From contig SCUL01000002.1 in NCBI GenBank assembly GCA_004297205.1, forward strand, positions 658,893-722,892: a stretch of DNA of 64,000 nt, given 5' to 3'. Position numbers and translations under genes: made by a program. The DNA is from Patescibacteria group bacterium (GTDB lineage Bacteria > Patescibacteriota > Patescibacteriia > 2-12-FULL-57-11). The notes below the pieces were generated by a model. That model searched no databases. It saw nothing but the letters and a program-made list of their open reading frames with translations, and was not told the origin of the DNA. This document shows, in pieces, positions 26,813-55,913 of this stretch (the stretch's first letter is position 1; each line of letters starts with the position of its first letter).

Positions 26813-26838
26813 TTTTTCTCCCGTTCTCCTTTTTGTTT

Positions 26839-27322: not shown

Positions 27323-27336
27323 CGCACACCCCATTG

Positions 27337-27507: not shown

Positions 27508-28095
27508 CTACTTCCGCCACCTCGCGATCTCCTTGAACGTGGCCTCGTCCACCTCTAGACCGGGGGATGATCCGAGGGTCCACCACCGCCGCGGCGGTGC
27601 GGCGACGTCCTTCATCGCCGCCTCGTACTCGTCGACCTCGATGAGGTCGAACAGGACCGACGCGTCGAGACCGATCGCATCATCGATCTCAAGAAGACGC
27701 GCGGCCAGGCCGCTGTCCGCCGTTTCCATGAGCGCGCGCTCGAGTGAGCAGCGCGCCGCGAAGCACGAGCGGACGGTGTGGAACTCGTCAACACCGCACG
27801 GCAACTCGCCGTTCGCGATGAGGGGGAGGATTCCCGCCATTTCCTCGAACTCCTCAGCGCATGCGAGCGCGTAGCGGAGTCCGTCCTCCTCTCTTTTCGC
27901 CGTCATCTGTGCGGCGGCGTCGCACATGTTGCGGAGATCGGCCACCTCCCTTCGCACCTCTTCGGCGGTGTCAGGCTCGCACCCGCACACCCCCTCGTCG
28001 GTGCGGCATGGACAACCCATGCCGGAGTGCCCGTATGGGCGCTCCGAGAAGTTCTTTACCCTCTCTGACCCACAGAAAGCACAAGCCATGTGCAT
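27508..28095 (-). CDS. hypothetical Cys-rich (zinc-ribbon-like) acidic protein
   Basis: Internal Met of ORF 27508..28302 (MHMACAFCGSERVKNF...GMGCPCRTDEGVCGC...). SD AAGGAG precedes the start. The upstream part of the long ORF is repeat-encoded. Confidence 0.5.
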   Translation of the reverse strand: MHMACAFCGSERVKNFSERPYGHSGMGCPCRTDEGVCGCEPDTAEEVRREVADLRNMCDAAAQMTAKREEDGLRYALACAEEFEEMAGILPLIANGELPCGVDEFHTVRSCFAARCSLERALMETADSGLAARLLEIDDAIGLDASVLFDLIEVDEYEAAMKDVAAPPRRWWTLGSSPGLEVDEATFKEIARWRK

Positions 28096-28108
28096 CTCCT
28101 TTTTTCTT

Positions 28109-28262
28109 GAGTCGCTTCGCCACAACGCGCCTCCGGGATATTTCACCCATCGGTCACATTGTAGCTCATCGCTCCTCGTCTCACACCACGAGCGGATTCG
28201 TGAGTTGAGATGAAGAAGAGGATCTTGGAAGACCCTCTGGAACGGCCGTCGCCCGTTCCTGC
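28109..28262 (-). repeat. intergenic repeat element R5 (long form, tail A)
   Basis: GAGTCGCTTCGCCACAACGCGCCTCCGGGATATTTCACCCATCGGTCA...CCTCGTCTCACACCACGAG...GAAGAGGATCTTGGAAGACCCTCTGGAACGGCCGTCGCCCGTTCCTGCC. Confidence 0.75.
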
Positions 28263-28268
28263 CGATTG

Positions 28269-28447
28269 CTACTCGTTCAATGCCATCTCCTCGATCAACC
28301 ACCGTTCGTCGGGGTCCTCGAGGTCCATTTCGTACTTCTCCGCGAGTTCCAACACTCGCTGCGCGAACAGCTGCTGCGCCTTTGTTTCATCGAACCCGGC
28401 GGCGATGAAGTCACCGAGGGTGAAGGCTGCCGTCTCGTACACTGCCA
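28269..28447 (-). CDS. hypothetical small acidic protein (~59 aa)
   Basis: MAVYETAAFTLGDFIAAGFDETKAQQLFAQRVLELAEKYEMDLEDPDERW..., SD GAGGAGG directly after R6. Below the ORF-track length cutoff; coordinates are approximate. Confidence 0.35.
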
Positions 28448-28453
28448 TGGTTT

Positions 28454-28544
28454 CCTCCTCGTCTCACGCCACGAGCGTTGCTCATGGTTTGAGATGAAAA
28501 GAGGATCTTGGAAGATCCCCTGGAACGGCCGATGCCCGTTCCTG
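28454..28544 (-). repeat. intergenic repeat element R6 (short form, tail A)
   Basis: CCTCCTCGTCTCACGCCACGAGCGTTGCTCATGGTTTGAGATGAAAAGAGGATCTTGGAAGATCC...GGAACGGCCGATGCCCGTTCCTGC. Its second hairpin GGATCTT-gg-AAGATCC shows compensatory changes relative to R1/R5. Confidence 0.7.
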
Positions 28545-28597
28545 CTTGCCCCGAGCGAAGTCGAGGGGCCTGTCCCGCGCGTCTCGCGGGACTGTAG

Positions 28598-28689
28598 TGG
28601 CACCGTCGGGAGTCGAACCCACTGATTGCCCCGACACTTGGTGTTGCCAAGCTGGAGAATCCCCTCCATATATATCGTCAGGCAGTGCC
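28598..28689 (-). other. tRNA-like fragment / pseudo-tRNA (possible integration-site remnant)
   Basis: On the minus strand: GGCACTG...GTGGG-TTCGACT-CCCGA-CGGTGCC-A. There is a 7-bp acceptor-like pairing including one G.U and a canonical T-arm/T-loop. No D-arm or anticodon arm could be folded. It is followed by an 8-bp GC hairpin GTCCCGCG/CGCGGGAC. Confidence 0.25.
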
Positions 28690-28718
28690 TTGTGCGCCCT
28701 TTGTCGAGGCGCTGTTCA

Positions 28719-28841
28719 CTACTTTTTGTCGCTGTCCTCCTGAACCGCGATCCAGCCGCGCTTGATGGCGTAACGGACCAGCAACGCGCCGGCAGAACAG
28801 ATCATGACCCAGATGAACGCAACGATGATGATCTTCAACAT
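28719..28841 (-). CDS. hypothetical 40-aa single-TM protein
   Basis: MLKIIIVAFIWVMICSAGALLVRYAIKRGWIAVQEDSDKK, SD GAGGAGG-4 nt-ATG directly after R7. Confidence 0.3.
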   Translation of the reverse strand: MLKIIIVAFIWVMICSAGALLVRYAIKRGWIAVQEDSDKK

Positions 28842-28845
28842 GCGA

Positions 28846-28930
28846 CCTCCTCGTCTGACCGCACCACCGGAGTGATGCCTTCGGAAGAGGAGAGAGCGCA
28901 TGCGCGATCCGCATCGCTCTCTGGACCCGT
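28846..28930 (-). repeat. intergenic repeat element R7 (short, diverged core, tail B-like hairpin)
   Basis: CCTCCTCGTCTGACCGCACCACCGGAGTGATGCCTTCGGAAGAGGAGAGAGCG-catgcgcgatccgcat-CGCTCTC. The hairpin is perfectly complementary and shows compensatory changes versus R2/R4. Confidence 0.6.
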
Positions 28931-28965
28931 TTTGTTTCTCCGGTGGGGTCCGAACCGGTTGTGCC

Positions 28966-29238
28966 TCAGCGCGAGGCGTAGATGATGGCCTCGCCATCGG
29001 CCACGATGTGCGTGGTTCCGACGGTGTACTCCTCGTGGGAGCGCAGCGTCTCGACCACCACGGGCACACGACCGACGATCTCGATCGTGTCGAGGACGAT
29101 CACGTGGCTTTCGGGCCGCGTGGTCTCCCGCGCCTCGTGGCGCTCTTCCCAGGCGAGAACCGCCGGGGACGTCATCGTGAGCGACGCGAACGCCGAGAGG
29201 CAGAGAACCGCGAACCCGAGCACCATGAGCTTCGTCAT
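28966..29238 (-). CDS. hypothetical secreted protein (~90 aa, signal peptide)
   Basis: Internal Met MTKLMVLGFAVLCLSAFASLTMTSPAVLA of ORF 28966..29529. The upstream part of that ORF is low-complexity. Confidence 0.45.
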   Translation of the reverse strand: MTKLMVLGFAVLCLSAFASLTMTSPAVLAWEERHEARETTRPESHVIVLDTIEIVGRVPVVVETLRSHEEYTVGTTHIVADGEAIIYASR

Positions 29239-29480
29239 CTTCGTTTTTCCGTTTTCCCGGTAGAGCTCTCCGCAGTGGCGTTTCCGCGTACTGAGTGCTC
29301 TCCGCCACACGACCCGATCTCTCACCCTCAGGTCTTGTGGCGGTGGGTTTTCAAGGTCCGCTTCGGCCGGCACCTGTGACGACAAGCTGCACATGTGCCG
29401 TCCGGTTCCTCCTTTTCCATCCTTAAAGAACGCATGACTATAGCATGCCCAAGCGGTTTTGTCAAGCCTGCGCCTGGCAT

Positions 29481-29512
29481 AAAGCAAAGAAAGTGGCTCA
29501 TCTGAGCCACTT
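29481..29512 (-). terminator. rho-independent terminator downstream of ruvA
   Basis: Perfect 10-bp palindrome AAGTGGCTCA-tc-TGAGCCACTT, followed on the minus strand by a T-rich run. Confidence 0.7.
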
Positions 29513-43459: not shown

Positions 43460-44395
43460 ATGTCGCGCCTTCCGGCACTGTTGCGTCATCTGGCGGAGTC
43501 CTACGTCGCCGTCCTTGTTATCGCGCTCACAATAGGCCTTTTTGTTCCGTCCGTCGGCCGGCAGCTGTCGCCCTACAGCACGTTCATCTTACAGAGCATC
43601 TTTTTCCTTTCCGCGTTGAAACTCGATCTGAAGTCCGTAGCGCGGGAGATGCGCAATTGGCGCGCTGTCGCCCTGGCAAATGCGTTCATGCTTATGGCGT
43701 TTCCGGCGGTCGGCTATCTGCTTGCTCGTCTTTTTGCGCCGCAGTACGCATTACCCGTCCTGATCCTCGCCGCCATGCCGGCGGGGATGACGACGCCGTT
43801 GCTCGCCGAACTCGTCGGCGGGTCGGCGGCATTCGCTCTGGTGCTTACGGTAACGACCTCGCTGCTTGCCCCGGTGACGGTCCCGCTTGTCATCCAATGG
43901 CTTGCCGGCGCAGCCGTCGAAGTGTCGTTCCTGACGATGTTCCTTTCGCTGCTCTCCGTGATCATTGCGCCGTTCGCGCTCGGACAGCTTGTCCGCGCGT
44001 TCATGAAGAAACGGATCGACGCAACATCGTTTGCGTTCAAGCCCGTGTCTCTCACACTGCTCGGTCTGCTGATCGTGAGTGTGATTGCAAAACAGGCCGA
44101 AGCAATTTTGGGGAACGGGCGGCTGCTCGTCGAGGGACTGGCGGTACTCATTGTTTATTTTGTGCTTGCGCATGCAGCGGGATTTTTCGGGTTTCCTTGG
44201 TTGCGTCGGGACCTGCGGCTCTCGACGACGGTGTGCTTGTCGTACATGAATTTCACACTCGCCATCTACCTGGCGGGTCGATTTTTCCCGCAACCGGAGG
44301 TGCTTGTACCGGTCGTGCTCTCCGTCATCCCGTGGAGCGTCGGCATTATTCCCTTCCGTGCGCTAACGCGACGGGCGCGGTACCATGCAGGTTGA
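43460..44395 (+). CDS. bile acid:sodium symporter (BASS) family membrane transporter
   Basis: 311 aa, ~9 TM helices, BASS-like repeats. Confidence 0.65.
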   Translation: MSRLPALLRHLAESYVAVLVIALTIGLFVPSVGRQLSPYSTFILQSIFFLSALKLDLKSVAREMRNWRAVALANAFMLMAFPAVGYLLARLFAPQYALPVLILAAMPAGMTTPLLAELVGGSAAFALVLTVTTSLLAPVTVPLVIQWLAGAAVEVSFLTMFLSLLSVIIAPFALGQLVRAFMKKRIDATSFAFKPVSLTLLGLLIVSVIAKQAEAILGNGRLLVEGLAVLIVYFVLAHAAGFFGFPWLRRDLRLSTTVCLSYMNFTLAIYLAGRFFPQPEVLVPVVLSVIPWSVGIIPFRALTRRARYHAG

Positions 44396-44937: not shown

Positions 44938-45011
44938 GGGCCGCTAGCTTAGTGGCAGAGCACCCGGTTTGCATCCGGGAGATGAGGGTTCGATTCCCTC
45001 GCGGTCCACCA
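44938..45011 (+). tRNA. tRNA-Ala (anticodon TGC), CCA encoded
   Basis: Acceptor GGGCCGC/GCGGTCC with the G3.U70 Ala identity pair, anticodon loop TTTGCAT, T-arm GAGGG-TTCGATT-CCCTC, 3' ACCA. Confidence 0.85.
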
Positions 45012-45171
45012 GAGAGAACCTAACCCAGACAATAAGGTGGAAGTGCATGACGGCGCTCAAGAAAGCGCCGTTTTCGTTCCCGATCGATCCGGGTAGTTCC
45101 GTCCACGACACCAGGAGAGAAACCGAACCCAAGATAAAGAAAGAGACTGAGCAAAGTCAGTCTCGTGGACG

Positions 45172-45393
45172 TCAGTCGTCCTGGCTATCTCCGCTCTCAT
45201 CGGGGATTACGCCCCAAAGGCGGAGGTAGGGCTTTCCGAACGTGGTTCCCATGAAGAAGCCGACCTGGATCGCGACGAACGCGACCGCAGTCGGCCACCA
45301 GAGGGGAACAAGGAACGAGAGCACGAGAACGTTTCCGAGCAGATGTGCCGTGGCGAACTTCCACTGACGCTGAGTTCCCATTCTCGGGTTCAC
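45172..45393 (-). CDS. hypothetical small membrane protein (2 TM helices)
   Basis: 73-aa ORF with two hydrophobic helices. Confidence 0.4.
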   Translation of the reverse strand: MNPRMGTQRQWKFATAHLLGNVLVLSFLVPLWWPTAVAFVAIQVGFFMGTTFGKPYLRLWGVIPDESGDSQDD

Positions 45394-45432
45394 TCCTTTC
45401 CCGAGATCGAAGACCCAGCCCCGATGGAATCT

Positions 45433-45972
45433 CTAGCCTGTACGACGCAGCTCTACGTACAGAATCATGATTCCTGACTCGTCGATACGATTCGCTACCA
45501 AGTAGCCCGTCATCGCGTCGCCCATCGGACTGATTTGGAGTAGCCCGGCTCCGAAATCGTGCGTCCGAGGATCATCACTGGCAAACGCGAGTCGCACAAA
45601 GTCGTCGTGCTCGAAGTGCATGTCCTCGATGACCTCGTGGTAGTTCGAGCCTGCGCCCCCGTCCACGATCGTGACCGCCTCGATGATTCCGCCGAGTCCG
45701 CCCGCGGTCGGTACCAAAGTCAGGGTAACCTGGAAATGCCGGGCCGGGGATCCCAGAGCAGCGTGACCCGCGTTGACAATGACTTCGTCAGATACTCCCT
45801 CCCATCGCCCGGTCACATCGCGGGTGGGCGACTCTGCTGCTGCGACGGGCGTCGGACTTCCACGGCCAGTCGTGAGAGTTGCGGCCGCGGTGATGAGAGA
45901 TGCCAGGATCGCGGTCCCCGCGCCCACGAGCGTCATCGTTCGCGTCGACCAGCTGCGCGCTGCCATGCTCAC
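45433..45972 (-). CDS. hypothetical secreted protein
   Basis: 179 aa with N-terminal signal-like segment MSMAARSWSTRTMTLVGAGTAILASLITAAA. Confidence 0.5.
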   Translation of the reverse strand: MSMAARSWSTRTMTLVGAGTAILASLITAAATLTTGRGSPTPVAAAESPTRDVTGRWEGVSDEVIVNAGHAALGSPARHFQVTLTLVPTAGGLGGIIEAVTIVDGGAGSNYHEVIEDMHFEHDDFVRLAFASDDPRTHDFGAGLLQISPMGDAMTGYLVANRIDESGIMILYVELRRTG

Positions 45973-46010
45973 CTCCGTGTGGGCGTCCTCGGGTTACCCT
46001 GCCCGGACGT

Positions 46011-47480
46011 TCAGGTCCTGTCAACGGGGACAGCGACCGCGGGTGCGTCTACAGTCTGTCCGCGGAGCTCGCGCCACGCGGGCCGGACGATGATCTCCGG
46101 ACTGCCGCCGACGATCTCGATGCACTCGACGACGCCGTCGACGGCCCGGCGTCGCAGCACGGGGTCGGGCGAAGCGAGCCACGCCTCGCAGTTCTCCGCG
46201 ATCTCGAGCAGCGCCTGTGTCCCGCGGGTCTCCTCCCCGTCGACCTTGACCGCGCGCAGCCTGCTCTCGCAGGCGCGCATCGCCTGATGGATGTCCGTGA
46301 ACTCCTTCTCGTAGGCGCCGATCGAGACAAGCTCGTTCGCCATCCGCATGACGAGCTGCCGGTACTGGACGTCGAGGCCGCGGCGACCGGCGCGAAGCGC
46401 GCGTACCTGCTCGGCCTGACGCGCAGTCTCCCGACGCATCTCCTCGCGGAGCTGCCGCCGCAGGATTGGTGCAGCACGTTCGGCCAGCCGTAGATCGCGC
46501 ACCTGCCGCACCACCTCCGTCTCGAGCGGCTCCGCTGCGGTGAGGTACCGGCAGGTGCTCCCGGCCCAGTGGCAGCGGTAGTAGGAGTAGACGCGGCCGG
46601 AGGGCTTCACGTGCCGCTCGGGGATCAGGTTCTTCCCGCAGCTCGGGCACCTCACCTTCCCGGAGAGCAGATGCTCGAGCCGTATGCGGGTGCGCCCGCC
46701 CGAGTCCTTCTGACGGAAGACCTCCTGGACGCGGGCGAACACCTCGCGCGAGACGAGCGCCGGGTGCGTTCCGTCGTGCTCGATGCCGCGCACCCGCATG
46801 ATGCCGGCGTAGAACGGGTTCTTGAGCAGGCGGCACAGGCCCGTCGCCGTGACCCGCTTACCGGTCCTCGAGACCAGGCCCTTCCGGTGGAGCTCGTCGG
46901 AGAGGGTGGTCGTCGGTACGGTGCCGGTCGCGAAGCGCTCGAAGGCTTCGCGCATCATCGGCGAGCGAGCCGGGTCGATGAGGACCCGGCCGCGTTCCTT
47001 GAGGTAGCCGACGGGTACCGCCCGAGCCCACCGGCCGCGGCGCAACGACTCGTCGATGCCTTTGCGGATCTCGAGACCGAGATTCGCGCTGTAGAACTCG
47101 GCGTGTGCAGCCATGATGTGTTCGAGGAACTCGCCCATCGGGTTGTCATCGAAACCCTCGACGAGGGAGACGATGCGCACCCCGACGCGGCGGAGCTTTC
47201 CCTTAAGAGTGAGGTAGCCGTAGATGTTCCGGGCGAGCCGATCGACGCGATGGACGAGCAGGACGTCGACCGTGCGGTCCGAGCTCGCGTGCCGCAGCAG
47301 CGACAACAATCCGGTACGTCCACGAAGCGTCTTGCCTGAGCCGACGTCCTGATACTCGCCGGCGATGGGCCAGCGTTCATCGGTAGCCCGGCGCCTGAGC
47401 GCGTGGAGCTGGGCGGGGATCGAGAGATCGCGCTCGGCCTGCTCACCGGTCGAGACGCGGGCGTAGAGAAGGACTGACAT
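46011..47480 (-). CDS. large serine recombinase (resolvase/invertase catalytic domain + recombinase domain + zinc ribbon)
   Basis: YARVSTGEQ catalytic-Ser motif, recombinase domain and CPSCG...C zinc ribbon. Start taken at MSVLLYARVSTGEQ; the ORF track's 47504 start is an upstream GTG. Confidence 0.85.
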   Translation of the reverse strand: MSVLLYARVSTGEQAERDLSIPAQLHALRRRATDERWPIAGEYQDVGSGKTLRGRTGLLSLLRHASSDRTVDVLLVHRVDRLARNIYGYLTLKGKLRRVGVRIVSLVEGFDDNPMGEFLEHIMAAHAEFYSANLGLEIRKGIDESLRRGRWARAVPVGYLKERGRVLIDPARSPMMREAFERFATGTVPTTTLSDELHRKGLVSRTGKRVTATGLCRLLKNPFYAGIMRVRGIEHDGTHPALVSREVFARVQEVFRQKDSGGRTRIRLEHLLSGKVRCPSCGKNLIPERHVKPSGRVYSYYRCHWAGSTCRYLTAAEPLETEVVRQVRDLRLAERAAPILRRQLREEMRRETARQAEQVRALRAGRRGLDVQYRQLVMRMANELVSIGAYEKEFTDIHQAMRACESRLRAVKVDGEETRGTQALLEIAENCEAWLASPDPVLRRRAVDGVVECIEIVGGSPEIIVRPAWRELRGQTVDAPAVAVPVDRT

Positions 47481-47481
47481 A

Positions 47482-47510
47482 CTGAGGTGGTTACGGGTTA
47501 CCACCTCAGC
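47482..47510. promoter_or_regulatory. GC-rich hairpin CTGAGGTGG-ttacgggttac-CCACCTCAG abutting the recombinase start codon
   Basis: 9-10 bp stem immediately 5' of the recombinase ATG. Candidate operator or att-associated site. Confidence 0.35.
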
Positions 47511-47699
47511 GTGCCAAACATCATCTCGAGGACGAACGCGCGTCGTCAGTGGGAGAACGGGACGAAGATGTCCCCACCCAGCATGCAGAATCGTAACGGC
47601 GGTGGGAGGTGGGCGTGGGACACACGATGTCGACAGTTGTCCACAAATCGAGAGCGGTGTGATTGAATTGGCGCCAGCCGGCTGCTGATCTCAAAGAGA

Positions 47700-47733
47700 A
47701 AACCCCTCGGCGCAGGACGTCCGAGGGGTCTCG
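47700..47733 (-). terminator. rho-independent terminator after the Cas2-like gene
   Basis: CCCCTCGG-cgcaggacgt-CCGAGGGG, followed on the minus strand by TTTTCTCTTT. Confidence 0.65.
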
Positions 47734-47742
47734 ATCGGTGGC

Positions 47743-48015
47743 TCAGCTGACGTTATTGTGCATCCACCGGAGGACGACGTCGTCAAGATTTTCAGACCAC
47801 CAAGAAGTCGTCATCCTGGTGATCAGCAGCCGGTCATTCGCGTCGAGACCGCCGGAGCCAAGGAGGTGGGTACGGAGTTCATCGCCCGAGAGAGACGTCT
47901 TCACCAGCCAGACGGATTCAAGAGGCCTGGCATAGGCGAACTGCCGCAGCGCCGCGTGCAATGTCGAATAGTCCTTCCCCACCTTCCGGAGATCGTAGCT
48001 GACCAAGTAGGTCAT
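47743..48015 (-). CDS. stand-alone Cas2/VapD-like small protein
   Basis: 90 aa, MTYLVSYDL...VGKDY..ALRQFAYARPLESVWLV... matches the Cas2 beta-alpha-beta layout (YDV....VAK...YG.RVQNSVF). No cas1 and no CRISPR array in the window. Confidence 0.35.
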   Translation of the reverse strand: MTYLVSYDLRKVGKDYSTLHAALRQFAYARPLESVWLVKTSLSGDELRTHLLGSGGLDANDRLLITRMTTSWWSENLDDVVLRWMHNNVS

Positions 48016-48147
48016 GTGATTGTTGGGCCGCCAGTGTGCTACACTAGTCGTGGTCCTGCTCCACGTCGCGCGTGCTTGGAGCGGCCGCTCTAGGAATGAA
48101 TGGACCGTTATCCCGGTCCATTCGGTATTTTCCCGCAGGTGTGAATC

Positions 48148-48177
48148 TTTGTCAACTTACTCCACACGGGTTGACAA
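48148..48177 (+). promoter_or_regulatory. inverted repeat TTGTCAAC-N13-GTTGACAA overlapping a -35 TTGACA upstream of the XRE gene
   Basis: Perfect 8-bp arms. The right arm contains TTGACA about 31 nt upstream of the ATG. Candidate autoregulatory operator. Confidence 0.45.
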
Positions 48178-48207
48178 CATCCATGTGCCTTGTAAAGATA
48201 GACCTCT

Positions 48208-48561
48208 ATGCAAACCCTTGGTGAGAAGATCAAGGTTCTCCGGGTGGCCAAGGGAATGACGCAGGAGGATCTGGCCGGGAAGCTTGGCTACTCGAAGTCT
48301 TTCATTTCCTATATTGAGAGTGGCGAGCGGAATCTGAGTGACGTCGATACCGATCGTATCGCGAAATGCCTAGAAGTGAGCGCGGAAGACCTTCGTTCGA
48401 AAGGTGCCGTCGTTTCGTTTCAGTTTCGTTCATCGAAGGTCGGCACAGACGAGGAGCACCGCAAGGTTGCTCAGAAGTTCACAGATTACGCGAGGAAACT
48501 AATCGAGGATTCGGATTCCAACCAGGAAGCCAGCGTATGGAAGGGCAGTCAGAAAAGATAA
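48208..48561 (+). CDS. XRE-family helix-turn-helix transcriptional regulator
   Basis: KIKVLRVAKGMTQEDLAGKLGYSKSFISYIESGERNLS HTH. Confidence 0.8.
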   Translation: MQTLGEKIKVLRVAKGMTQEDLAGKLGYSKSFISYIESGERNLSDVDTDRIAKCLEVSAEDLRSKGAVVSFQFRSSKVGTDEEHRKVAQKFTDYARKLIEDSDSNQEASVWKGSQKR

Positions 48562-49013
48562 GAGGAATATTGAAACAAGCGGGCATTACTGTTCCGCCCG
48601 TGGACGTCACAAAGGTGGCCGAGCTGTTTTCGATCCCTGTCATTCCCTACCCAGACTTCCCCGAAGACATCTCGGGGACCATCGTCCGTTTGGATGACAA
48701 CGGCAAGGCGGTGATCGGCATCAATCAGAAACACGCGGCCGTTCGGCAGCGGTTCACGGTGGCGCACGAATTGGGTCACTACCTCTGCGGCCATGACGAC
48801 CGCACCATTGTCGATGATCGTCTCGACAAGGACAGTCCGAAGGAAACCGAAGCCAACCGTTTCGCAGCGGAGCTTCTCATGCCTCGGGATTTGCTTGTCG
48901 TTGACCTAAAGAAGGGTCGCTTTGATATACCTGCTCTAGCTCAGCGCTACCAGGTGAGTGAGCAGGCGATGTCGGTAAGGTTGCTCCAGTCCGGATTGCT
49001 GAAGAAGTTCTAA
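48537..49013 (+). CDS. ImmA/IrrE-family metallopeptidase (HEXXH)
   Basis: FTVAHELGHYLCGHDD HEXXH motif, ...EANRFAAELLMP. Internal Met MEGQSEK of ORF 48366..49013, overlapping the XRE gene by 25 nt. Confidence 0.8.
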   Translation: MEGQSEKIRGILKQAGITVPPVDVTKVAELFSIPVIPYPDFPEDISGTIVRLDDNGKAVIGINQKHAAVRQRFTVAHELGHYLCGHDDRTIVDDRLDKDSPKETEANRFAAELLMPRDLLVVDLKKGRFDIPALAQRYQVSEQAMSVRLLQSGLLKKF

Positions 49014-49099
49014 GTGCGATTCCACTTCGCTTTCAGGAAGTGATTTCTAACATCGTTGATTGGGGTCCACCAAAAGGATTCCAGCATTTGCCATGAAAT

Positions 49100-49660
49100 A
49101 TGCCTGATGAACAAAAAGAAAAGATCGAGATTGCGAGACATTTCGATACTCAGCTTTGGGCAATTCCAGCAGTATTTGTAACCATGGTCGCGTTTCTTTC
49201 TGAAGGACTCGACAAGAAAGACTTTGTAGGTTGGTGGAATTTTTGCTTTTTTCTGACAGCAGCCGCCTTTTCCTGGCTCCTGTTGTTGCTTTTTAATAAA
49301 GTTCACTTTCAACAACTGAGGCTTAGTCACCCTTCAAAGAAAAGCGCGCCCCAGGAGAGCGAGGACAAGGGCGACAAAGAACTCGCGCTTGATTCATTTT
49401 TTTCGCTCTCGAGAGGTGAAGTTGTTCAAGAGGTTCAACGACTAAAGGGTGAGGGCGTGGATATATCACTTTGGCAAGAGTGGCTTGCAAAGCGGACCGT
49501 GGCGGCATGGTGGCGCATTGTCATGACCCTTTTCGCTGTTGGAACTCTTGTGGTAGCTGCATACATTTTTTTCATTCTGATCGGTGATTGTGCAACGCGG
49601 ACGCAGAGTCGGCCTTTTGTTCAGTGTGTAATATCAGCAAAGGCGATTACATATAATTAA
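49100..49660 (+). CDS. hypothetical membrane protein
   Basis: 186 aa with several TM helices; AT-richer than the flanking core genome. Confidence 0.5.
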   Translation: MPDEQKEKIEIARHFDTQLWAIPAVFVTMVAFLSEGLDKKDFVGWWNFCFFLTAAAFSWLLLLLFNKVHFQQLRLSHPSKKSAPQESEDKGDKELALDSFFSLSRGEVVQEVQRLKGEGVDISLWQEWLAKRTVAAWWRIVMTLFAVGTLVVAAYIFFILIGDCATRTQSRPFVQCVISAKAITYN

Positions 49661-49663
49661 GAT

Positions 49664-50125
49664 ATGGATGATCGGGCATTTCTCGAGATCGCAGTAGATG
49701 TTTCTCGGGAATCAGTTATTCTCGGCGGTTTTCCCGTCGGGGCGATCATTGTTCGAGAAGGAGAAATCATTTCGCGCGGCGTCAGCAATGGCAAGCAGCT
49801 GAAAGATCCGACCAGTCACGCTGAAATCGCCGCCATCCGTGACGCCTGTCAGAAGTTGCAGAGGCAGAGTTTGAAAGATGCGGTTCTTTACTCGTCGATG
49901 GAGCCGTGCCTGATGTGCTTTGCTGCGGCGACGTGGGCCTCCGTACCGAGAATAGTGTATGCCTGTGGCAGGGCACGGGTGGGTGAAGAGCATTTTGAAG
50001 GCGCGCACGATGTCCCCGCGTTGAATGCACGTGCCCGCAAGCCCATCGAATTCCTCCACATCACCACCCTCGAAGAAACGGCGGCCCAAGTGATAAGCGA
50101 ATGGAAAACGGAATCCTCGCGATAA
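49664..50125 (+). CDS. cytidine/deoxycytidylate-type zinc deaminase (TadA/guanine deaminase-like)
   Basis: SHAEIAAI and MEPCLMCFAA zinc-binding motifs (H-A-E ... P-C-x-x-C). Confidence 0.8.
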   Translation: MDDRAFLEIAVDVSRESVILGGFPVGAIIVREGEIISRGVSNGKQLKDPTSHAEIAAIRDACQKLQRQSLKDAVLYSSMEPCLMCFAAATWASVPRIVYACGRARVGEEHFEGAHDVPALNARARKPIEFLHITTLEETAAQVISEWKTESSR

Positions 50126-50187
50126 GAGAGGATAAATTCGGTGAAATAGCTGCTAGAATCAGAGAGGTGGAGGGACGGTCGTAGCCG

Positions 50188-51099
50188 TTGGCGGCTTACT
50201 TGAATACCATGCATTGGATTTCACTCTCCTTGCTTGGCCCGCTCTTTTGGGCCTCATCTAATTTCGTCGATAAGTACATCCTCAGTAAACACTCGAAGGG
50301 GATCTTCGACTTCCTTTTCTTTTCAACAATCACGAGTTGGTTCTTGTTTGTCCTTCTGTTTATTTTTGTCGGGATGCCGGAACTGACGGTGTACTCATGG
50401 ATACCTATTTTGACGGGAGTCATCCTCATCTACTCGTACGGCTTCTACGGAAAGGCGCTCGAACAGGGGGACACATCGGCGCTCGTCATTCTGTTCAAGT
50501 TGATTCCAGTTATCACGCTCATCCTGGCGTTCGTCTTTTTAGGTCAAACCGTATCTTCTCGTGAGCTGCTCGGTTTTTTGATCGTTCTTGCGGGAGCAAC
50601 GATCGTTTCGTTTGAAAAAAGCAGAGGCGTCCTTATCAAAGGTTTTGGCATGATACTCATTGCCATATTCATGTGGTCCGTGATGACCCTTTTCATCGAT
50701 TACGGACTCACAAAGATGTCTTTCTGGGATTACTTTTTGCTCGATACTTTGGGTTCAGCGATAGCCGGACTGACGTTTTTTATTGTTCCCGCGATGCGGA
50801 GACAAATCATTGATGGGTTGAAAACTGCCACCACCGGTAAATATGTTTGGTTTTCCGGAAACAATCTTTTGGATTTCTTTGGCCAAATGAGCGTTAAGAA
50901 GGCTCTTGCGATTGCTCCCTCTGCCGGCCTGGTGACGGTCGTCACGCAAGTACAATCTTTCTATGCGATAGTGATTGGACTTGTGCTGACGCTCCTCATC
51001 CCCAAGATCATAAAGGAAGACATCTCCAGGTTTACTTTAGTGAAAAGATTCGTTGGCGCTTTGATCATGTTCTCGGGAGTCTATATTTTGTTGGCGTAG
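50188..51099 (+). CDS. EamA/DMT-superfamily transporter
   Basis: 303 aa, ~10 TM helices in two halves. Start possibly at MHWISLS (50209). Confidence 0.7.
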   Translation: MAAYLNTMHWISLSLLGPLFWASSNFVDKYILSKHSKGIFDFLFFSTITSWFLFVLLFIFVGMPELTVYSWIPILTGVILIYSYGFYGKALEQGDTSALVILFKLIPVITLILAFVFLGQTVSSRELLGFLIVLAGATIVSFEKSRGVLIKGFGMILIAIFMWSVMTLFIDYGLTKMSFWDYFLLDTLGSAIAGLTFFIVPAMRRQIIDGLKTATTGKYVWFSGNNLLDFFGQMSVKKALAIAPSAGLVTVVTQVQSFYAIVIGLVLTLLIPKIIKEDISRFTLVKRFVGALIMFSGVYILLA

Positions 51100-51241
51100 T
51101 TTTTCAATCGGGCGGAACAAAAGCCGAGGCGGGGTGAGTCCCGTTACGCTCGGGTTGCGATTACCGCCAGTGCCTTCGTAGTCGATACGGTGATACAATG
51201 CTTCCGTCGATCATGGCCATTCATCATTTAACAGAACGGGT

Positions 51242-51589
51242 ATGCCATACAGCTGCGGAGAAAACAAGCATCGAGCGATCGTTTTGGCGATCGCCGCGGC
51301 ACATGACACGAAGGATGCGGCCGTCGCAGAGGCAAAGAAACTCTTTGAGGACATCGTGCAGAAAGATTTCGACGGTCATGTCAAAGAGGCATGTCCTCGG
51401 GGGAAATGTCCTGAAGCCCATATTTTCGGCTCCGTGGATCCCAACCCCCCGAAAATCGACGCGCATCAGGATCGCCAGGGGAAGTGGGTCTGTGGCATTT
51501 CAAGTAACCTCATCATCGACGTCTACTGTCTGCCTAAATCTGAAACGGGACCCGTTACCTTCCCTCCGACTATCGAGTGGGAAGAATAG
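51242..51589 (+). CDS. hypothetical protein (115 aa, Cys pairs)
   Basis: CPRGKCPEAH... No family assignment. Confidence 0.45.
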   Translation: MPYSCGENKHRAIVLAIAAAHDTKDAAVAEAKKLFEDIVQKDFDGHVKEACPRGKCPEAHIFGSVDPNPPKIDAHQDRQGKWVCGISSNLIIDVYCLPKSETGPVTFPPTIEWEE

Positions 51590-51609
51590 ACTCGACTTCG
51601 CCATCGCAC

Positions 51610-51633
51610 GCCGCGGTTACCCCGCGGCGTTTT
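51610..51633 (+). terminator. rho-independent terminator (GCCGCGG-ttacc-CCGCGGC + TTTTG)
   Basis: Perfect 7-bp GC stem followed by a T-run after the 51242..51589 gene. Confidence 0.65.
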
Positions 51634-51636
51634 GTA

Positions 51637-51665
51637 TTGACGCGCGTTTTGGGCGGGGGTATGGT
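51637..51665 (+). promoter_or_regulatory. promoter TTGACG-17 nt-TATGGT upstream of the TrpF-like gene
   Basis: -35 and -10 with a 17-nt spacer, then SD GGAAGGAGG and ATG at 51690. Confidence 0.5.
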
Positions 51666-51689
51666 CGCGCCGGTGGAAGGAGGACCACG

Positions 51690-52472
51690 ATGCCCAGTTA
51701 CGTCGGCGTAACCGGATTCACACAGCACGACCAGGTGATGCGCGCGCTCCAGGCGGTGCCGGAGCGTTCGGCCCGGAAGTTCATGGTGGGCGTGTTGGCG
51801 AGCGCCAAGTCGCTGCGCGGCATCCCGCTCAAGCCGGAGTGGCAGGATCGTTACCCGAAGCGCGAGGAGATCGCCGGGATCTTCCCGGACGATCCGCGCA
51901 CGCTCAACCTGGTGCACTACGCGCCCGGGGAGGAGTACCGGGAGACGTTGATCAACGACCTCATCGCGCTCAGCGAAATGGCCGGCCCGCGTTTGCACGG
52001 TTTTCAGCTGAACGCCGCCTGGCCGCGGCCGACCACGCTCGGCGTCTACAGGGAACACTGCGGCTACCGCAACGACGTCATCGTGCTCCAGCTCGGACGG
52101 GCCGCGCTCGCCGAAATGGCGGGCGACCACCGTGCCGTGGCGGAGCGGGTCCGGGAATACGGCGCGCTCATCGACGCCGTGCTCGTGGATCCGAGCTGCG
52201 GCACGGGGCAGCCGTTCGACGCCCGCGCTGCGCGGGCTCTCCTGGCCGCCGTCGCCGACCGCTGTCCGCATCTCGGTCTCGGCGTGGCCGGCGGACTTGG
52301 TCCGGATCGGCTCGACGCGGCGCTTGAGCTGGCGACGGATTTCCCCCGGCTCTCGATCGATGCCGAGGGACGGCTGCGGAGCCCCGACGGGCTGAATGAG
52401 CACGTCGTGTCTGCCTACCTGCAGCAGGCCTACGGCGTACTCGACCGCGTCCCGTACGCATTGCCGGCCTGA
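51690..52472 (+). CDS. TrpF-like (phosphoribosylanthranilate isomerase family) TIM-barrel protein
   Basis: Internal Met MPSYVGVTGFTQHD of ORF 51198..52472 with a strong SD. C-terminal pattern D-x-S-x-GTGQPFD ... GVAGGLGPDRLDAAL ... SIDAEGRL resembles TrpF. No other trp genes are nearby. Confidence 0.55.
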   Translation: MPSYVGVTGFTQHDQVMRALQAVPERSARKFMVGVLASAKSLRGIPLKPEWQDRYPKREEIAGIFPDDPRTLNLVHYAPGEEYRETLINDLIALSEMAGPRLHGFQLNAAWPRPTTLGVYREHCGYRNDVIVLQLGRAALAEMAGDHRAVAERVREYGALIDAVLVDPSCGTGQPFDARAARALLAAVADRCPHLGLGVAGGLGPDRLDAALELATDFPRLSIDAEGRLRSPDGLNEHVVSAYLQQAYGVLDRVPYALPA

Positions 52473-52510
52473 GGAGTTCGTTCGGCCCCACCGGAGGTGT
52501 CGGCCTCAGG

Positions 52511-52547
52511 ACGTCGCACGCCATTGATGCGTGCGACGCTTTTTTAT
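52511..52547 (+). terminator. rho-independent terminator (ACGTCGCACGC-cattgat-GCGTGCGACG + TTTTTT)
   Basis: 10-bp stem plus a T6 run after the TrpF-like gene. Confidence 0.8.
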
Positions 52548-52560
52548 GTATCATGTCGGC

Positions 52561-53325
52561 ATGCCGAAACGCCTCCTCACGCTCGCCGCTGCAATTGCGC
52601 TCCTCGGCGCGTCTTGTTCATCCCCGCCCGCGACCGGCTATCTGCCGCCGCCGGCGGAGCAGCCGCCGCTGGTTGCACCCGCCCGCGAACAGAATCTGAT
52701 CGTCGAAGAGCGCACCGCTTCTTCGTCACGGTTTTTGGTGATCCGGCAGAAGGAGCCGCAGGTGAAGCTGGCGCTTATTCGCCCGGACGAGAACGATCCG
52801 GACATCCTCCTGTCCGTCCCCGGCACGTACACGTCTCCTCAGGATACCATCGAAGGCTACGTCGTGCTCGACGGGCAGATCGTGCAACAAAAGGAACGGC
52901 AGGGCTGGGACGGCGCGATCGCGTTCAAGGACGGCGGCGTCGACATCCGCCAAACCAACCGCGGGCGCGCGCTCACCAAAGAGGCGCTGGCCGACATCGC
53001 TGCACAGGGCGCCTCGCTCATCCAGGTGCATCTGCTTGTCAAAGACGGGACGCCGCAGCACTTCAAGGAACAGCCGCCGACGTTGCGCCGTGCGTTGGCT
53101 GTGATGAAAGATGGCACGCCGGCCGTGATCGAAAGCCGCGACTTCTTCGACCTGAACGCCTTTGCCGCGTTGCTCGTCGAGCTCGGCGCGCGCGACGCCG
53201 CCAACCTCGACATGGGCAGCTGGAGTGCCGGCTGGTACAGGGGCGGCGATGGCCGGCCGGTGCCGATCGGCTATCCGCATGAAAACGCCAAGCGGCAGAC
53301 GAACTGGATCGTCTTCGGGGAGTGA
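52561..53325 (+). CDS. lipoprotein (lipobox LGASC), hypothetical
   Basis: MPKRLLTLAAAIALLGASC-SS signal/lipobox. Internal Met of ORF 52531..53325. Confidence 0.6.
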   Translation: MPKRLLTLAAAIALLGASCSSPPATGYLPPPAEQPPLVAPAREQNLIVEERTASSSRFLVIRQKEPQVKLALIRPDENDPDILLSVPGTYTSPQDTIEGYVVLDGQIVQQKERQGWDGAIAFKDGGVDIRQTNRGRALTKEALADIAAQGASLIQVHLLVKDGTPQHFKEQPPTLRRALAVMKDGTPAVIESRDFFDLNAFAALLVELGARDAANLDMGSWSAGWYRGGDGRPVPIGYPHENAKRQTNWIVFGE

Positions 53326-53366
53326 ACCGGGCCATCAGGGTCCGGTTTTGGTATGATGCTCCCGAT

Positions 53367-55913
53367 ATGGAGGAACGCCGGTATCTGGCGCATGCGACGC
53401 GCAGCGTGGAGGAATCCCTGCGCATGCTTGGCAGTGCGCCGGAAGGACTCACGGTACGCGAGGCCGTCGGCCGGCTGCACTCGGTCGGCGAGAACCGGCT
53501 GACGACGCGGCGCGTCACGCCGCAGCGCGTCCTGGCCCGCCAGTTCCGCTCGGCCTACGTCGGCCTGCTGCTCGTGGCCGCGCTGATTGCGCTCGGCCTC
53601 GGTGAGCGGCTCGATGCCGCGCTCATCCTGTTGTTCGTCGTCCTGAACGCGACGCTCGGGTTCTTCCAGGAATACCGCGCCGAGCGGGCGCTCGAATTGC
53701 TGCGTCTGCTCGTCCCCAAAAAGGCGCGCGTGCGGCGCGACGGAACGGAACAGCTCTTGGAGGCCGCGCATCTCGTGCCGGGCGACGTGGTCCGGCTCGT
53801 GCCCGGCGACCAGGTGCCGGCCGACCTGCGCGTCATCACCGCCGAGGGGCTGCTCGTCGACGAGTCGGCGCTCTCCGGCGAGTCGGCGCCGGCCGCCAAA
53901 GACGCGCGGCCGCTCGCAAAGCCGCCGGCCACCGATCTGGAAGCGCGCAACGTCCTGTTCTCCGGCACCGCCGTCGTCTCCGGCACCGCCGAAGGCGTCG
54001 TCGTGGCCACCGCCGGACGCACCGTGGTCGGGGAGTTGGCGCGCACCGTTGCGGAGACGCCGGAGACCTCCGAGCTCGCCCGGACGCTCGCCGGCTTCGG
54101 CCGTTTTTCGATGGCGCTGACGTTCGTGACGCTCGCCGTCATCTTTTGCGTGAAGTACCTGCTCGCACCCGGGCAGTTCAATGCCGCCGATTATCTGATT
54201 TTTGCGATCGCTCTGGCGGTCGGCGTGATTCCGGAGGCGTTGCCGCTCGTCGTCACGGTCTCGCTGTCCGCCGGCGCGCATCGTCTGGCCCGCAAGAAAG
54301 TCGTGCCGCGCCGGCTGTCCGCCATCGAAGACCTGGGTTCGATCCAGGTGCTGTGCACGGACAAGACCGGCACCATCACCGAGAACGCCATGTCGGTCGC
54401 GGACGTGGCCGGGGAGCGCACCGCGGTGCTTGCGGCCGCGCTTGCCGCCGCGCCGTCCGACGCCTTTGCCGAACACCAGCCGGGCAACGCGTTTGATCGC
54501 GCGCTCGCCGCCGCGGCCAACGTCGAGGCGCGCGCCGCTGCCGGCAGCGCCAAGAGAGTCCAAGAAATCCCGTTCACGCCGGAGCGGCGCCGCAACGTCA
54601 TGCGGCTTCAGGACGCGCGCGGCAACGAACGGCTCGTGGTCCGCGGCGCGCCGGAGGTCGTCCTGCCGCTGTGCGCGGCGGGGCTGGCCGCCGGTCCGCT
54701 TGCCGACTGGGTGGCAGAGCGCGGCCGGGAAGGCAAGCGCGTGCTTGCCGTGGCCGAGAAAGCCGTGGCGCGCGGCGAGGACACCGCCGCCGCGGAGACC
54801 GGCGGCTTCACCTTGCTCGGCGCCGCGGCTTTCGCCGACCCGTTGAAGCGGGACGCCGCAAGCACCATCGCCCGTGCCCGCGCGGCCGGCATCCAGGTCA
54901 AGATTCTGACCGGCGACGGGCCGGACGTCGCGGGCGCCGTCGGCGTGGCCGTGGGGCTTGTGGCGCGGCCGGAGGATGTCGTGACCGGCGCCGCCTTCAG
55001 CGCGCTGAGCTCTTCGGAGAAGCACGTCATCGCCCATGAGCGTCACGTCTTCGCCCGCGTCTCGCCGGCGCAGAAGTTCGAGATCATCGCCATTCTCAAG
55101 GAGCTGCAGGTCGTCGGCTTCCTGGGAGAAGGCTTCAACGACGCGCCGGGGCTCAAACTCGCGCACGTCGGGCTCGCCGTGGACAAGGCCGCCGACGTCG
55201 CCAAGGACGCGGCCGACATCATCCTCCTGAACCACGGCCTGCACGTGATCGTGGACGGCATCATGGAAGGGCGGCGCACCTTCTCGAACACCATGAAGTA
55301 CGTGCGCAACACGCTGTCCGCGAATTTCGGCAATTTCTTCGCGGTGGCGCTGTCCTCGCTGTTCGTGCCGTTCCTGCCGATCCTGCCGGTCCAGATCCTG
55401 CTCATCAACCTGCTGTCCGATTTCCCGATGATCTCGATCGCCACCGACCGCGTCGAGCCGGAAGACCTGCGCCGGCCGGCGGTGGCGCACATCCGGGACG
55501 TGGTGCTGTTCGCGCTCGTGCTCGGGCTCGTGTCCACGGTCTTCGATTTCATCTTTTTCGGCTGGTTCGTCCGTTTCGGCGAGCGGCCGTTGCAGACGAT
55601 GTGGTTCATGGGGTCGATCCTGACCGAACTCGTTCTGTTCTACTCGCTGCGCACCGCGCGTCCGTTCTGGAAGGGCGGTCGGCCGAGCCTGCTCGTGATG
55701 GCGCTGACCTGCGTTGCGACTGCGGCGACGCTCACCCTGCCGTACCTGATCGTCGCCCGCGGCGTCTTCCACTTCGTGCGTCCGGCGCCGGAGTGGATGA
55801 CCGCGGTCGTCGGCATCACCGCCGCCTACTTCGTCACGACGGAAATCGTGAAACTTGCCTACGAGAAGCTCCTTGGGGTACGAAACGGGGAGCATGTCCA
55901 TGATGTTTCCTGA
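53367..55913 (+). CDS. cation-transporting P-type ATPase
   Basis: CTDKTGTITEN phosphorylation motif, TGDGPD / GDGxNDAP-like (GFNDAPGLKLAHVG) motifs and 10-TM architecture. Start taken at MEERRYLAHA. Confidence 0.9.
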   Translation: MEERRYLAHATRSVEESLRMLGSAPEGLTVREAVGRLHSVGENRLTTRRVTPQRVLARQFRSAYVGLLLVAALIALGLGERLDAALILLFVVLNATLGFFQEYRAERALELLRLLVPKKARVRRDGTEQLLEAAHLVPGDVVRLVPGDQVPADLRVITAEGLLVDESALSGESAPAAKDARPLAKPPATDLEARNVLFSGTAVVSGTAEGVVVATAGRTVVGELARTVAETPETSELARTLAGFGRFSMALTFVTLAVIFCVKYLLAPGQFNAADYLIFAIALAVGVIPEALPLVVTVSLSAGAHRLARKKVVPRRLSAIEDLGSIQVLCTDKTGTITENAMSVADVAGERTAVLAAALAAAPSDAFAEHQPGNAFDRALAAAANVEARAAAGSAKRVQEIPFTPERRRNVMRLQDARGNERLVVRGAPEVVLPLCAAGLAAGPLADWVAERGREGKRVLAVAEKAVARGEDTAAAETGGFTLLGAAAFADPLKRDAASTIARARAAGIQVKILTGDGPDVAGAVGVAVGLVARPEDVVTGAAFSALSSSEKHVIAHERHVFARVSPAQKFEIIAILKELQVVGFLGEGFNDAPGLKLAHVGLAVDKAADVAKDAADIILLNHGLHVIVDGIMEGRRTFSNTMKYVRNTLSANFGNFFAVALSSLFVPFLPILPVQILLINLLSDFPMISIATDRVEPEDLRRPAVAHIRDVVLFALVLGLVSTVFDFIFFGWFVRFGERPLQTMWFMGSILTELVLFYSLRTARPFWKGGRPSLLVMALTCVATAATLTLPYLIVARGVFHFVRPAPEWMTAVVGITAAYFVTTEIVKLAYEKLLGVRNGEHVHDVS

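Follow-up and report, generated by a model that had tools for sequence, protein, structure and literature searches.

Several described systems share parts of their organisation with the locus reported here. The immR-immA operon of ICEBs1 ends in a tyrosine integrase gene, and its divergent excisionase gene is followed by the transfer genes. CapH and CapP are encoded next to a regulated operon that lies on the opposite strand and has a promoter region in common with them, and both CapP and IrrE have extra helix-turn-helix (HTH) and GAF domains (10.1101/2022.04.27.489752). Prochlorococcus has tycheposons and cryptic elements linked to tRNA genes, which are small, integrative, and loaded with cargo; they reshape the islands beside tRNA genes in streamlined genomes without conjugation (10.1101/2020.12.28.424599). 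The locus in question is a block of 5.2 kb at positions 45016-50189 of a 64-kb stretch of contig SCUL01000002.1, which is called the window at its full length. The host is an uncultured, high-GC, Uhrbacteria-like bacterium from groundwater under Patescibacteria (Candidate Phyla Radiation, CPR) that is represented by a metagenome-assembled genome (MAG), and the relatives of the flanking genes identified by protein search belong to Uhrbacteria and Patescibacteria. We lean towards the reading that the block is a small mosaic cargo island borne by a large serine recombinase (LSR), or a recent remnant of such an island, which this lineage gained at a tRNA-Ala(UGC) hotspot together with a phage-type XRE/ImmA switch.

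The 3' flank of tRNA-Ala is a hypervariable hotspot because three related genomes hold three different contents right after the CCA end. The tRNA-Ala(UGC) gene (44938-45011, + strand; ARAGORN; Rfam tRNA, 68 bits) is the only Rfam family matched in the region, and its 3' end forms the left edge of the variable region. This tRNA is 97-99% identical to its counterpart in three of the loci retrieved from relatives (L003, L014, and L015), and homology ends no more than 4 nt past the CCA in all three. L014 and L015 are Hainich groundwater contigs of which the flank proteins are 81-91% identical to those of the window. Both contigs exhibit the order pfkB, 2-hydroxyacid dehydrogenase, 136-aa protein, tRNA-Ala, 518-aa gene, deaminase, EamA, 260-aa protein, and NAGPA. 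Both are without the LSR, the small open reading frames (ORFs), the 90-aa gene, XRE, ImmA, the membrane protein, and the 115-aa ORF. Nucleotide homology between the window and L015 (blastn) covers the tRNA plus 4 nt, restarts at window position 50190, and is broken again at 51166-51609. In the more distant relative L003, a single gene lies between the tRNA and NAGPA; it is unrelated, low in GC, and encodes 321 aa. The block is absent at all the loci of relatives that were fetched (L003, L004, L005, L014, L015, L016, and L019). The tblastn search of all island proteins against L003-L005 and L013-L019 gave no match for the small ORFs, LSR, 90-aa protein, XRE, ImmA, or membrane protein. Regarding the hotspot genes of the relatives themselves, the 321-aa protein of L003 (10540-11505) has no family match. 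The 518-aa protein of L015 (2439-3995) has a weak match to the PADLOC candidate-defence model PDC-M36A (1e-7) and a D...ExK-like motif near its C-terminus.

The block is a compositional mosaic, and the recombinase itself is not compositionally foreign. The GC content at third codon positions (GC3) is 0.80-0.89 for host genes and 0.87 for the LSR, of which the overall GC of 0.69 is also host-like. The other genes of the block have lower GC3 values: 0.76 for the 90-aa gene, 0.74 and 0.71 for the two small ORFs at 45172-45393 and 45433-45972, 0.62 for XRE, 0.67 for ImmA, 0.44 for the membrane protein, and 0.60 for the deaminase. The EamA gene (0.59) and the 115-aa ORF (0.60) that come after the block are similar. 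The clear GC drop extends from 48.0 to ~51.6 kb (GC 0.41-0.59), with host-level GC again from ~51.6 kb, and the low-GC DNA continues into the EamA gene, which relative L015 also has.

A sequence-only reading of this DNA had described an island of about 6 kb at 45012-51190, inserted 3' of tRNA-Ala. The insertion is supported by the loci of the relatives, from all of which the block is absent, and the block does begin at the 3' end of the tRNA. Its limits were corrected to 45016-50189, which leaves EamA outside and sets apart a separate indel at 51166-51609. The change in composition that had been placed directly after the tRNA was recovered as the drop from 48.0 to ~51.6 kb; the LSR is host-like, and the drop runs past 51.19 kb. 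All gene classes that had been named are present according to Pfam, PHROGs, and PADLOC, and the stated absence of capsid, terminase, and conjugation genes was confirmed with the same three resources and NCBIfam. The proposal of a compact integrative element or its remnant agrees with the absence of the block from relatives, the intact LSR, and the switch, but has no support from the search for att sites, which identified none.

No capsid, terminase, portal, tail, lysis, or replication gene was found among the ORFs at 45.0-51.6 kb (Pfam, PHROGs, NCBIfam, and PADLOC). The island has no Pfam or NCBIfam match to a relaxase, type IV secretion, or coupling protein, and no excisionase (xis) or transfer gene was found with Pfam and PHROGs. 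When compared with the gene set of phage satellites resembling phage-inducible chromosomal islands, only the integrase and the repressor are present, with no primase or replication module and no packaging or capsid-redirecting gene. Four ORFs (45172-45393, 45433-45972, 49100-49660, and 51242-51589) are without a significant family match. The mobility of the island is putative.

The LSR (46011-47480, - strand, 489 aa) matches all three Pfam domains of its class above their gathering cut-offs: Resolvase (PF00239, 2.2e-30, 106 bits against a cut-off of 23), Recombinase (PF07508, 4.8e-11, 43 bits), and Zn_ribbon_recom (PF13408, 1.1e-6, 29 bits). It matches the PHROG 95 integrase (1.7e-79) and exhibits the serine nucleophile motif YARVSTGEQ and a four-Cys zinc ribbon (CPSC...C...C), so the gene is apparently intact. 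The protein is identical to NCBI EPO33_04910 from a Patescibacteria MAG. The ATG start at 47480 agrees with the public gene call, and the exact-protein look-up of a GTG-start version returned nothing. The NCBIfam Ccr models gave 57-84 bits against cut-offs of 700-900. A leader hairpin (47475-47516, - strand; -25.3 kcal/mol, z -6.1) pairs the start codon of the LSR and a Shine-Dalgarno (SD)-like GAGGUGG run. The recombinase with its YARVSTGEQ motif, zinc ribbon, and own leader hairpin had thus been read correctly.

Two ORFs follow the LSR in the same operon. The ORF at 45433-45972 (- strand, 177/179 aa) is a gene call in the public assembly with an N-terminal transmembrane or signal segment, and it has only a sub-threshold Pfam match and no significant family. 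The ORF at 45172-45393 (- strand, 69/73 aa) is also a public gene call, with hydrophobic segments that form two transmembrane stretches and no family match in Pfam, PHROGs, NCBIfam, or PADLOC. The operon of the LSR, 177-aa, and 69-aa genes ends at an intrinsic terminator (45143-45164, - strand; z -3.9), of which the stem is followed by a U-rich tail.

The best non-self homologues of the LSR are 43-51% identical. Eight independent loci of this clade, the window included, were retrieved and scanned for tRNAs. The 3' end of the LSR faces the 3' end of a tRNA at 77 bp in L007-9 (tRNA-Arg), 80 bp in L030/31 (tRNA-Pro), 1.0 kb in the window (tRNA-Ala), and 1.76 kb in L006 (tRNA-Gly). In L011, tRNA-Ala(CGC) lies on the other side of the LSR, 2.2 kb away, with a TIR-SEFIR gene between them. 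The tRNA-LSR pairs are at L007 11455-11604, L030 11458-11612, L006 2196-4028, and L011 512-2813. A tRNA with its 3' end towards the island therefore lies within 2.2 kb in five of the eight contexts. Such a number of correctly oriented tRNA neighbours is unlikely to have arisen by chance given about one tRNA per 20 kb, which is our own estimate and not a formal test. The whole island at the tRNA-Pro locus of L030 is 2.3 kb long and consists of the LSR and one small gene between two tRNA clusters. The cargo of the clade is small, variable, and often of defence type: a DEAD helicase with Fic and a deaminase, an AAA_13 ATPase, TIR-SEFIR, or Gabija-like genes with a cyclic-oligonucleotide-based anti-phage signalling system (CBASS), and sometimes a second LSR. 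None of the other island proteins of the window recurs in the clade loci. A terminator-like hairpin after tRNA-Ala (45049-45072, + strand; 9-bp GC stem and UUUUCG) has an equivalent at the post-tRNA position in L015, which is without LSR, as well as in the LSR-bearing L006, L007, and L030.

The leader hairpin is a second common property of the clade. All eight loci exhibit a hairpin at the LSR start codon that also pairs the upstream SD-like purine run, and the stem sequences differ. The evidence consists of single-sequence folds and their z-scores, which are -6.1, -4.3, -0.7, -1.7, -2.5, -4.4, -1.5, and -2.7 for the eight loci. The hairpins are at 47475-47516 in the window, ~718-758 in L006, ~9960-10006 in L007, L010, L012, L030, and L032, and ~2778-2815 in L011. 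No Rfam family matches the leader hairpin, and RNAalifold on the MAFFT alignment of the leader hairpins gave no consensus structure, with the stems misaligned. The stems include G-U pairs, and at least the predicted stem of L006 needs them, which suggests an RNA hairpin and not a DNA site. Translation of the recombinase may be gated by this conserved hairpin. An attP role for the palindrome at the start of the LSR was also considered and rejected, since all eight chromosomal loci have it intact.

A broader claim can be put forward tentatively, and we hold it to be possible though doubtful. The LSR clade would be a distinct, non-viral group that targets tRNA 3' flanks under hairpin-gated translation. 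In CPR and other bacteria of groundwater, it would define minimal cargo-shuttling elements of 2-10 kb, often with defence genes. As a serine-recombinase counterpart of tycheposons, they would be a main driver of gene turnover at the tRNA hotspots of these reduced genomes.

The clade also bears on a possible phage origin. The block might be the leftover lysogeny module of a decayed prophage, namely of a temperate phage that used an LSR integrase at the tRNA-Ala flank and an ImmR/ImmA-type switch, lost its replication, structural, and lysis genes, and retained, besides integrase and switch, a moron-like gene of Cas2 fold and some accessory genes. The LSR clade at 43-51% identity is absent from the 2.9 million viral contigs of IMG/VR, where the best identity is 27-37%, and from isolated phages, where identity does not exceed 30%. 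The neighbours of the clade are chromosomal or of defence type in eight of eight contexts, and no relic of a structural, lysis, or replication gene is detectable with Pfam or PHROGs. These findings argue against a prophage remnant, although a lysogeny module with the same four gene families does exist in Enterococcus phage phiFL1A. The ImmA protein of the island is 38% identical to the antirepressor metalloproteases of phages. Temperate phages and viral contigs have homologues of the 90-aa protein, some of them labelled Cas2-like by their depositors, and one viral contig has XRE and ImmA within 2-4.5 kb. The gene order is nevertheless unlike that of phage modules, with the integrase on the strand opposite the repressor operon, and we consider a decayed prophage unlikely.

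The switch consists of two overlapping genes and a divergent control region. The XRE-family HTH repressor (48208-48561, + strand, 117 aa) matches HTH_31 (8e-13) and HTH_3 (5e-12) in Pfam, a control protein and capH (4.5e-9) in PADLOC, and, below the cut-off, the spr1629 repressor/antitoxin family in NCBIfam (3e-13). The ImmA/IrrE-type M78 zinc peptidase (48537-49013, + strand, 158 aa) consists of the peptidase domain only (Peptidase_M78, 3.1e-23) with the motif HELGH, and its gene overlaps that of XRE by 25 nt (48537-48561). The best PADLOC match of this protein is capP (3.9e-30), which covers only positions 8-153 of the 242 in the profile. The predicted peptidase is ImmA-like in architecture because it is without the extra HTH and GAF domains of CapP and IrrE. 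The control region of 192 bp between the two arms was analysed by promoter scan and pattern searches, and its features lie at 48098-48177. A perfect palindrome with 8-bp arms, TTGTCAAC-N13-GTTGACAA (48149-48177), spans both divergent -35 boxes, and all three exact copies of TTGTCAAC in the 64-kb window fall inside the island. A second palindrome, GAATGGACC-N8-GGTCCATTC, is at 48098-48123. The leftward promoter (-35 at 48155-48150, -10 at 48132-48127) has a scan score of 10/12. A putative rightward promoter (TTGACA at 48171-48176 with an extended -10) would give a leaderless XRE mRNA.

The gene divergent from the repressor encodes a 90-aa protein (47743-48015, - strand) of PHROG 1090 (3.5e-18). 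It is followed by an intrinsic terminator (47699-47732, - strand; -24 to -26 kcal/mol) with the U-tract UUUUCUCUUU. The protein has no Pfam match, Cas2 included, and the PDB sequence search gave only noise. Its AlphaFold2 (AF2) model has a predicted local distance difference test (pLDDT) score of 75, and the top Foldseek matches in PDB are all Cas2, VapD, or GhoS, with weak statistics (template modelling (TM) score 0.54-0.62, best E 2e-3). Cas2 and VapD have a ferredoxin-like fold of which the N-terminal beta-strand ends in a conserved Asp; the sequence LVSYDL occurs at residues 4-9 of the 90-aa protein. No cas gene was found in the region with Pfam, so there is no adjacent cas1, and no CRISPR array was found in the 64-kb window. 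The name Cas2/VapD-like is modestly supported; it is fair for the fold and is not a demonstrated family membership.

These results divide the remaining claims of the sequence-only reading. The palindromic operator that it placed at XRE corresponds to the perfect 8-bp-arm palindrome over the divergent -35 boxes. The stand-alone Cas2/VapD-like gene was confirmed in its terminator and, modestly, in its fold, with no Pfam family behind it. The regulatory pair of ICEBs1/prophage type holds for the overlapping XRE and M78 genes, but the integrase is outside the repressor operon and the Cas2-like gene is in the place of the excisionase.

The central genes may also be read by analogy as a stress-responsive toxin or defence module. 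XRE and the M78 peptidase would then control a gene to either side of them, one for a Cas2/VapD-like RNase and one for the membrane protein, as in the Xre-COG2856 three-component toxin-antitoxin or the CapH/CapP operons, and the module would stabilise the island or abort phage infection. The capP and capH matches, the NCBIfam antitoxin match below its cut-off, and the Cas2/VapD/GhoS-like fold suggested by the model are consistent with such a module. The 90-aa gene also holds the position of the operon regulated by CapH/CapP, being on the opposite strand with a common promoter region (10.1101/2022.04.27.489752). However, the peptidase of 158 aa covers part of the capP profile only and is without the HTH and GAF domains. 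The 90-aa protein, membrane protein, and deaminase match no PADLOC defence model; a marginal dCTPase match of the deaminase (5e-6) covers the catalytic core only. The defence cargo of the LSR relatives and a homologue of the membrane protein that adjoins Fic are further points in favour, but the 90-aa family is not consistently tied to XRE/ImmA in phages and the homologues of the membrane protein are not tied to it either. We consider this module decidedly unlikely.

The membrane protein (49100-49660, + strand) has 186 aa with three long hydrophobic helices and no family match in Pfam, PHROGs, NCBIfam, or PADLOC. Its AF2 model is a confident three-helix model (pLDDT 86) that found no meaningful match in fold searches of BFVD and PDB. 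The family is rare, with 27 relatives among 1.8 billion representatives, and the best non-self relative is 56% identical over 46% of its length. The protein itself may be hotspot cargo, as suggested by its homologues, which sit 38 nt after a tRNA-Ala(UGC) and beside Fic/DUF4325 (L029). A conserved module of XRE, ImmA, and membrane protein was considered and is unsupported, with both retrievable homologues of the membrane protein in other contexts. The first of these homologues is at 1570-2126 of L028, a Hainich groundwater contig, and the tRNA-Ala(UGC) in front of it is a different one. There is no recombinase between that tRNA and the homologue, and the contig ends shortly after.

The right side of the block is defined by the deaminase and EamA genes. 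The final gene of the lineage-specific block (49664-50125, + strand, 153 aa) encodes a zinc deaminase of the cytidine deaminase (CDA) fold, guanine-deaminase or TadA-like (dCMP_cyt_deam_1, 5e-25). Among solved structures, the guanine deaminase of B. subtilis is closest to it (3.5e-23). It is unlikely to be the essential TadA of the host, as it reached 70 bits with the TadA model against a cut-off of 150, is closest to guanine deaminase, and is absent from the L003 locus. The EamA/DMT transporter region (50190-51165; ORF 50209-51099, + strand; EamA 1e-15 in Pfam) has 92% amino-acid and 86.6% nucleotide identity to L015 4606-5582. EamA lies outside the LSR-linked block and belongs to an older shared low-GC acquisition, because it is 92% identical in a relative without LSR. 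The deaminases that L014 and L015 have in this place are only 46-48% identical to that of the window. The latter appears to be a replacement allele, with 46% identity beside EamA at 92%, and this step in identity points to a recombination breakpoint in the deaminase-EamA spacer. The deaminase gene and spacer (window 49664-50189) were compared with L015 4105-4605. About 30 nt of the spacer (50155-50184) is ~67% identical to the 3' end of the L015-type deaminase gene, which hints that the incoming segment replaced a resident deaminase.

A breakpoint at this position could also be the product of hotspot turnover by homologous recombination, in which the LSR was only a passenger. A related Uhrbacteria donor would have been the source of DNA, acquired for example by DNA uptake, that replaced the interval from tRNA-Ala to EamA via crossovers in the tRNA and near EamA, and the LSR would perhaps be inactive. 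Both breakpoints abut conserved sequence, namely the tRNA at 97-99% and EamA at 86.6% nucleotide identity, and a divergent allele (46%) of a gene already there in L015 is what cassette replacement gives. The hotspot genes of L003 and L015 are without any integrase, no att site was found, and the GC3 of the LSR equals that of the host, suggesting long residence in high-GC relatives. Such replacement leaves unexplained the repeated spacing of 77-80 bp between the LSR clade and tRNA 3' ends in unrelated genomes, and it also leaves unexplained an LSR that is intact and has a conserved leader hairpin. We consider a passenger LSR improbable, and homologous replacement and integration by the LSR are not mutually exclusive. 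The same is true of all three rivals, with respect both to the LSR-borne cargo island and to each other.

The searches for att sites bear directly on integration by the LSR. The generic repeat search returned short matches only, none of which has a counterpart at the tRNA end. No fragment of the tRNA 3' end was found in 45012-53500 at 2/16, 4/20, or 6/24 mismatches. Smith-Waterman comparison of the tRNA-proximal 190 bp with each candidate distal region, in direct and inverted orientation, gave nothing above the 95th percentile of shuffles. No half-site symmetry or terminal inverted repeat was found between the candidate ends. The attL/attR repeats envisaged in the sequence-only reading hence did not appear as an att repeat, a tRNA-derived repeat, or a terminal inverted repeat. 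Serine recombinases make no long target duplication, so the missing distal tRNA repeat is expected if a serine recombinase and not a tyrosine recombinase was responsible.

Several points weigh against the LSR-borne cargo island. No att site is identifiable, there is no tRNA-derived repeat, and integration by the LSR is putative. The clearest relatives have the LSR 77-80 bp from the tRNA, whereas 1 kb and two ORFs lie between them here. The GC3 of the LSR is 0.87 against 0.44-0.76 for its neighbours, and the block looks pieced together from several sources and not like one unit. The right breakpoint is in the spacer of a locus that already held a deaminase-EamA pair, so homologous replacement fits as well as site-specific integration. 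The best non-self relatives of the LSR, 90-aa protein, and membrane protein are 51%, 41%, and 56% identical, protein searches with these three found no second copy of island genes above 56% identity, and there is no sign of recent spread. Analogy is the basis both for regulation by XRE/ImmA and for any connection of the switch with the LSR, and a terminator separates the 90-aa gene from the LSR.

For the LSR-borne cargo island, the following sequence of events can be proposed. The LSR would recombine a site of the element with an attB that overlaps the 3' end or flank of the tRNA and would leave no duplication. In the resting state, an XRE dimer on the palindrome at 48149-48177 would repress both arms. 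The leftward arm would consist of the Cas2-like gene, from which transcription would read through toward the LSR operon, and the rightward arm of XRE, ImmA, the membrane protein, and the deaminase. On a signal of damage or infection, the ImmA peptidase would become active, cleave XRE, and so derepress both arms. The conserved hairpin that buries the start codon of the LSR would hold translation of the recombinase low. The island is without transfer genes of its own and would need a helper phage or DNA uptake to move from cell to cell.

Other variable segments were identified around the block. The indel of 444 bp (51166-51609, + strand) is absent from L015 (blastn and sequence comparison) and contains the 115-aa ORF (51242-51589), which has no match in Pfam, PHROGs, NCBIfam, or PADLOC. 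This indel sits directly 5' of a terminator (51608-51630) that precedes the 260-aa gene, and its two ends, GGTTGCGATTACC and GCCGCGGTTACC, loosely repeat each other. A short way upstream of tRNA-Ala, a second indel is the locus of an SBF-family transporter gene (window 43460-44395), of which the GC3 of 0.71 is below that of its neighbours. L003, L013, L014, and L015 have no such gene between those of the dehydrogenase and the 136-aa protein; the more distant L004 and L016 have one, with 58% identity. GC is also lower (0.59-0.62) at window 25500-29500, a stretch with a series of small ORFs without Pfam match that lies beyond a FemAB-family gene, which comes after tRNA-Arg(CCG). A second island at tRNA-Leu (12088-12174) was considered and rejected, as the next gene is RNase J.

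The genomes of CPR/Patescibacteria are tiny, and their routes of gene acquisition are little known. This locus is a tRNA-flank hotspot with different cargo in each of three related genomes, and one variant has an intact LSR and a phage-type, putatively damage-responsive switch. If the LSR clade does target tRNA flanks, it would offer a concrete and testable route for gene flux in CPR and a collection of recombinases whose target sites are conserved and can be predicted.

The comparison with the described systems gives the following likenesses and differences. ICEBs1 and phi105 of Bacillus subtilis, like the island, have an XRE repressor followed by a short M78 HEXXH peptidase without extra domains. 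In all of them the pair is at a divergent promoter region in an integrated element that adjoins a tRNA gene. Unlike in ICEBs1, the integrase of the island is an LSR on the opposite strand, outside the repressor operon. The divergent gene of the island has a predicted Cas2 fold and a terminator and is no excisionase, there is no conjugation machinery, and cleavage of the repressor and induction are suggested by analogy. CapH and CapP are similar to the island in having an HTH repressor and an M78 peptidase opposite a gene with a common promoter region, and capP is the best PADLOC match of the peptidase. The peptidase of the island differs from CapP in being without the HTH and GAF domains, and no recognised defence system is adjacent.

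The cassettes of the staphylococcal cassette chromosome (SCC), with CcrAB/CcrC, are also cargo moved by LSRs without replication or transfer genes, located at the 3' end of a conserved housekeeping gene with no long target duplication. Unlike SCC, of which the target is rlmH, the island is at a tRNA flank, is much smaller, has only a distantly related recombinase, and has no flanking recognition repeats that we could find. The island differs from tycheposons in having no partial tRNA repeat and no replication module, in a recombinase that faces outward to the tRNA, and in belonging to another host phylum and another recombinase lineage; it is also known from sequence alone.

Enterococcus phage phiFL1A (Phifelvirus) has a serine integrase, ImmA/IrrE, XRE, and gp05 in a lysogeny module of ~3 kb. 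Its gp05 is 34.5% identical to the 90-aa protein of the island, the only island protein that matched the module by tblastn at E <= 1e-3, with no match for XRE, ImmA, and LSR. The four genes are co-oriented in the phage, whereas they form two divergent arms in the island, and the phage has a full set of structural genes, whereas the island has none. The phiFL1A module is the closest known arrangement, though the order and orientation of the genes differ. By itself, the island is a conventional small genomic island of an already known type, and the unusual part is the tRNA link of the LSR clade together with its leader hairpin.

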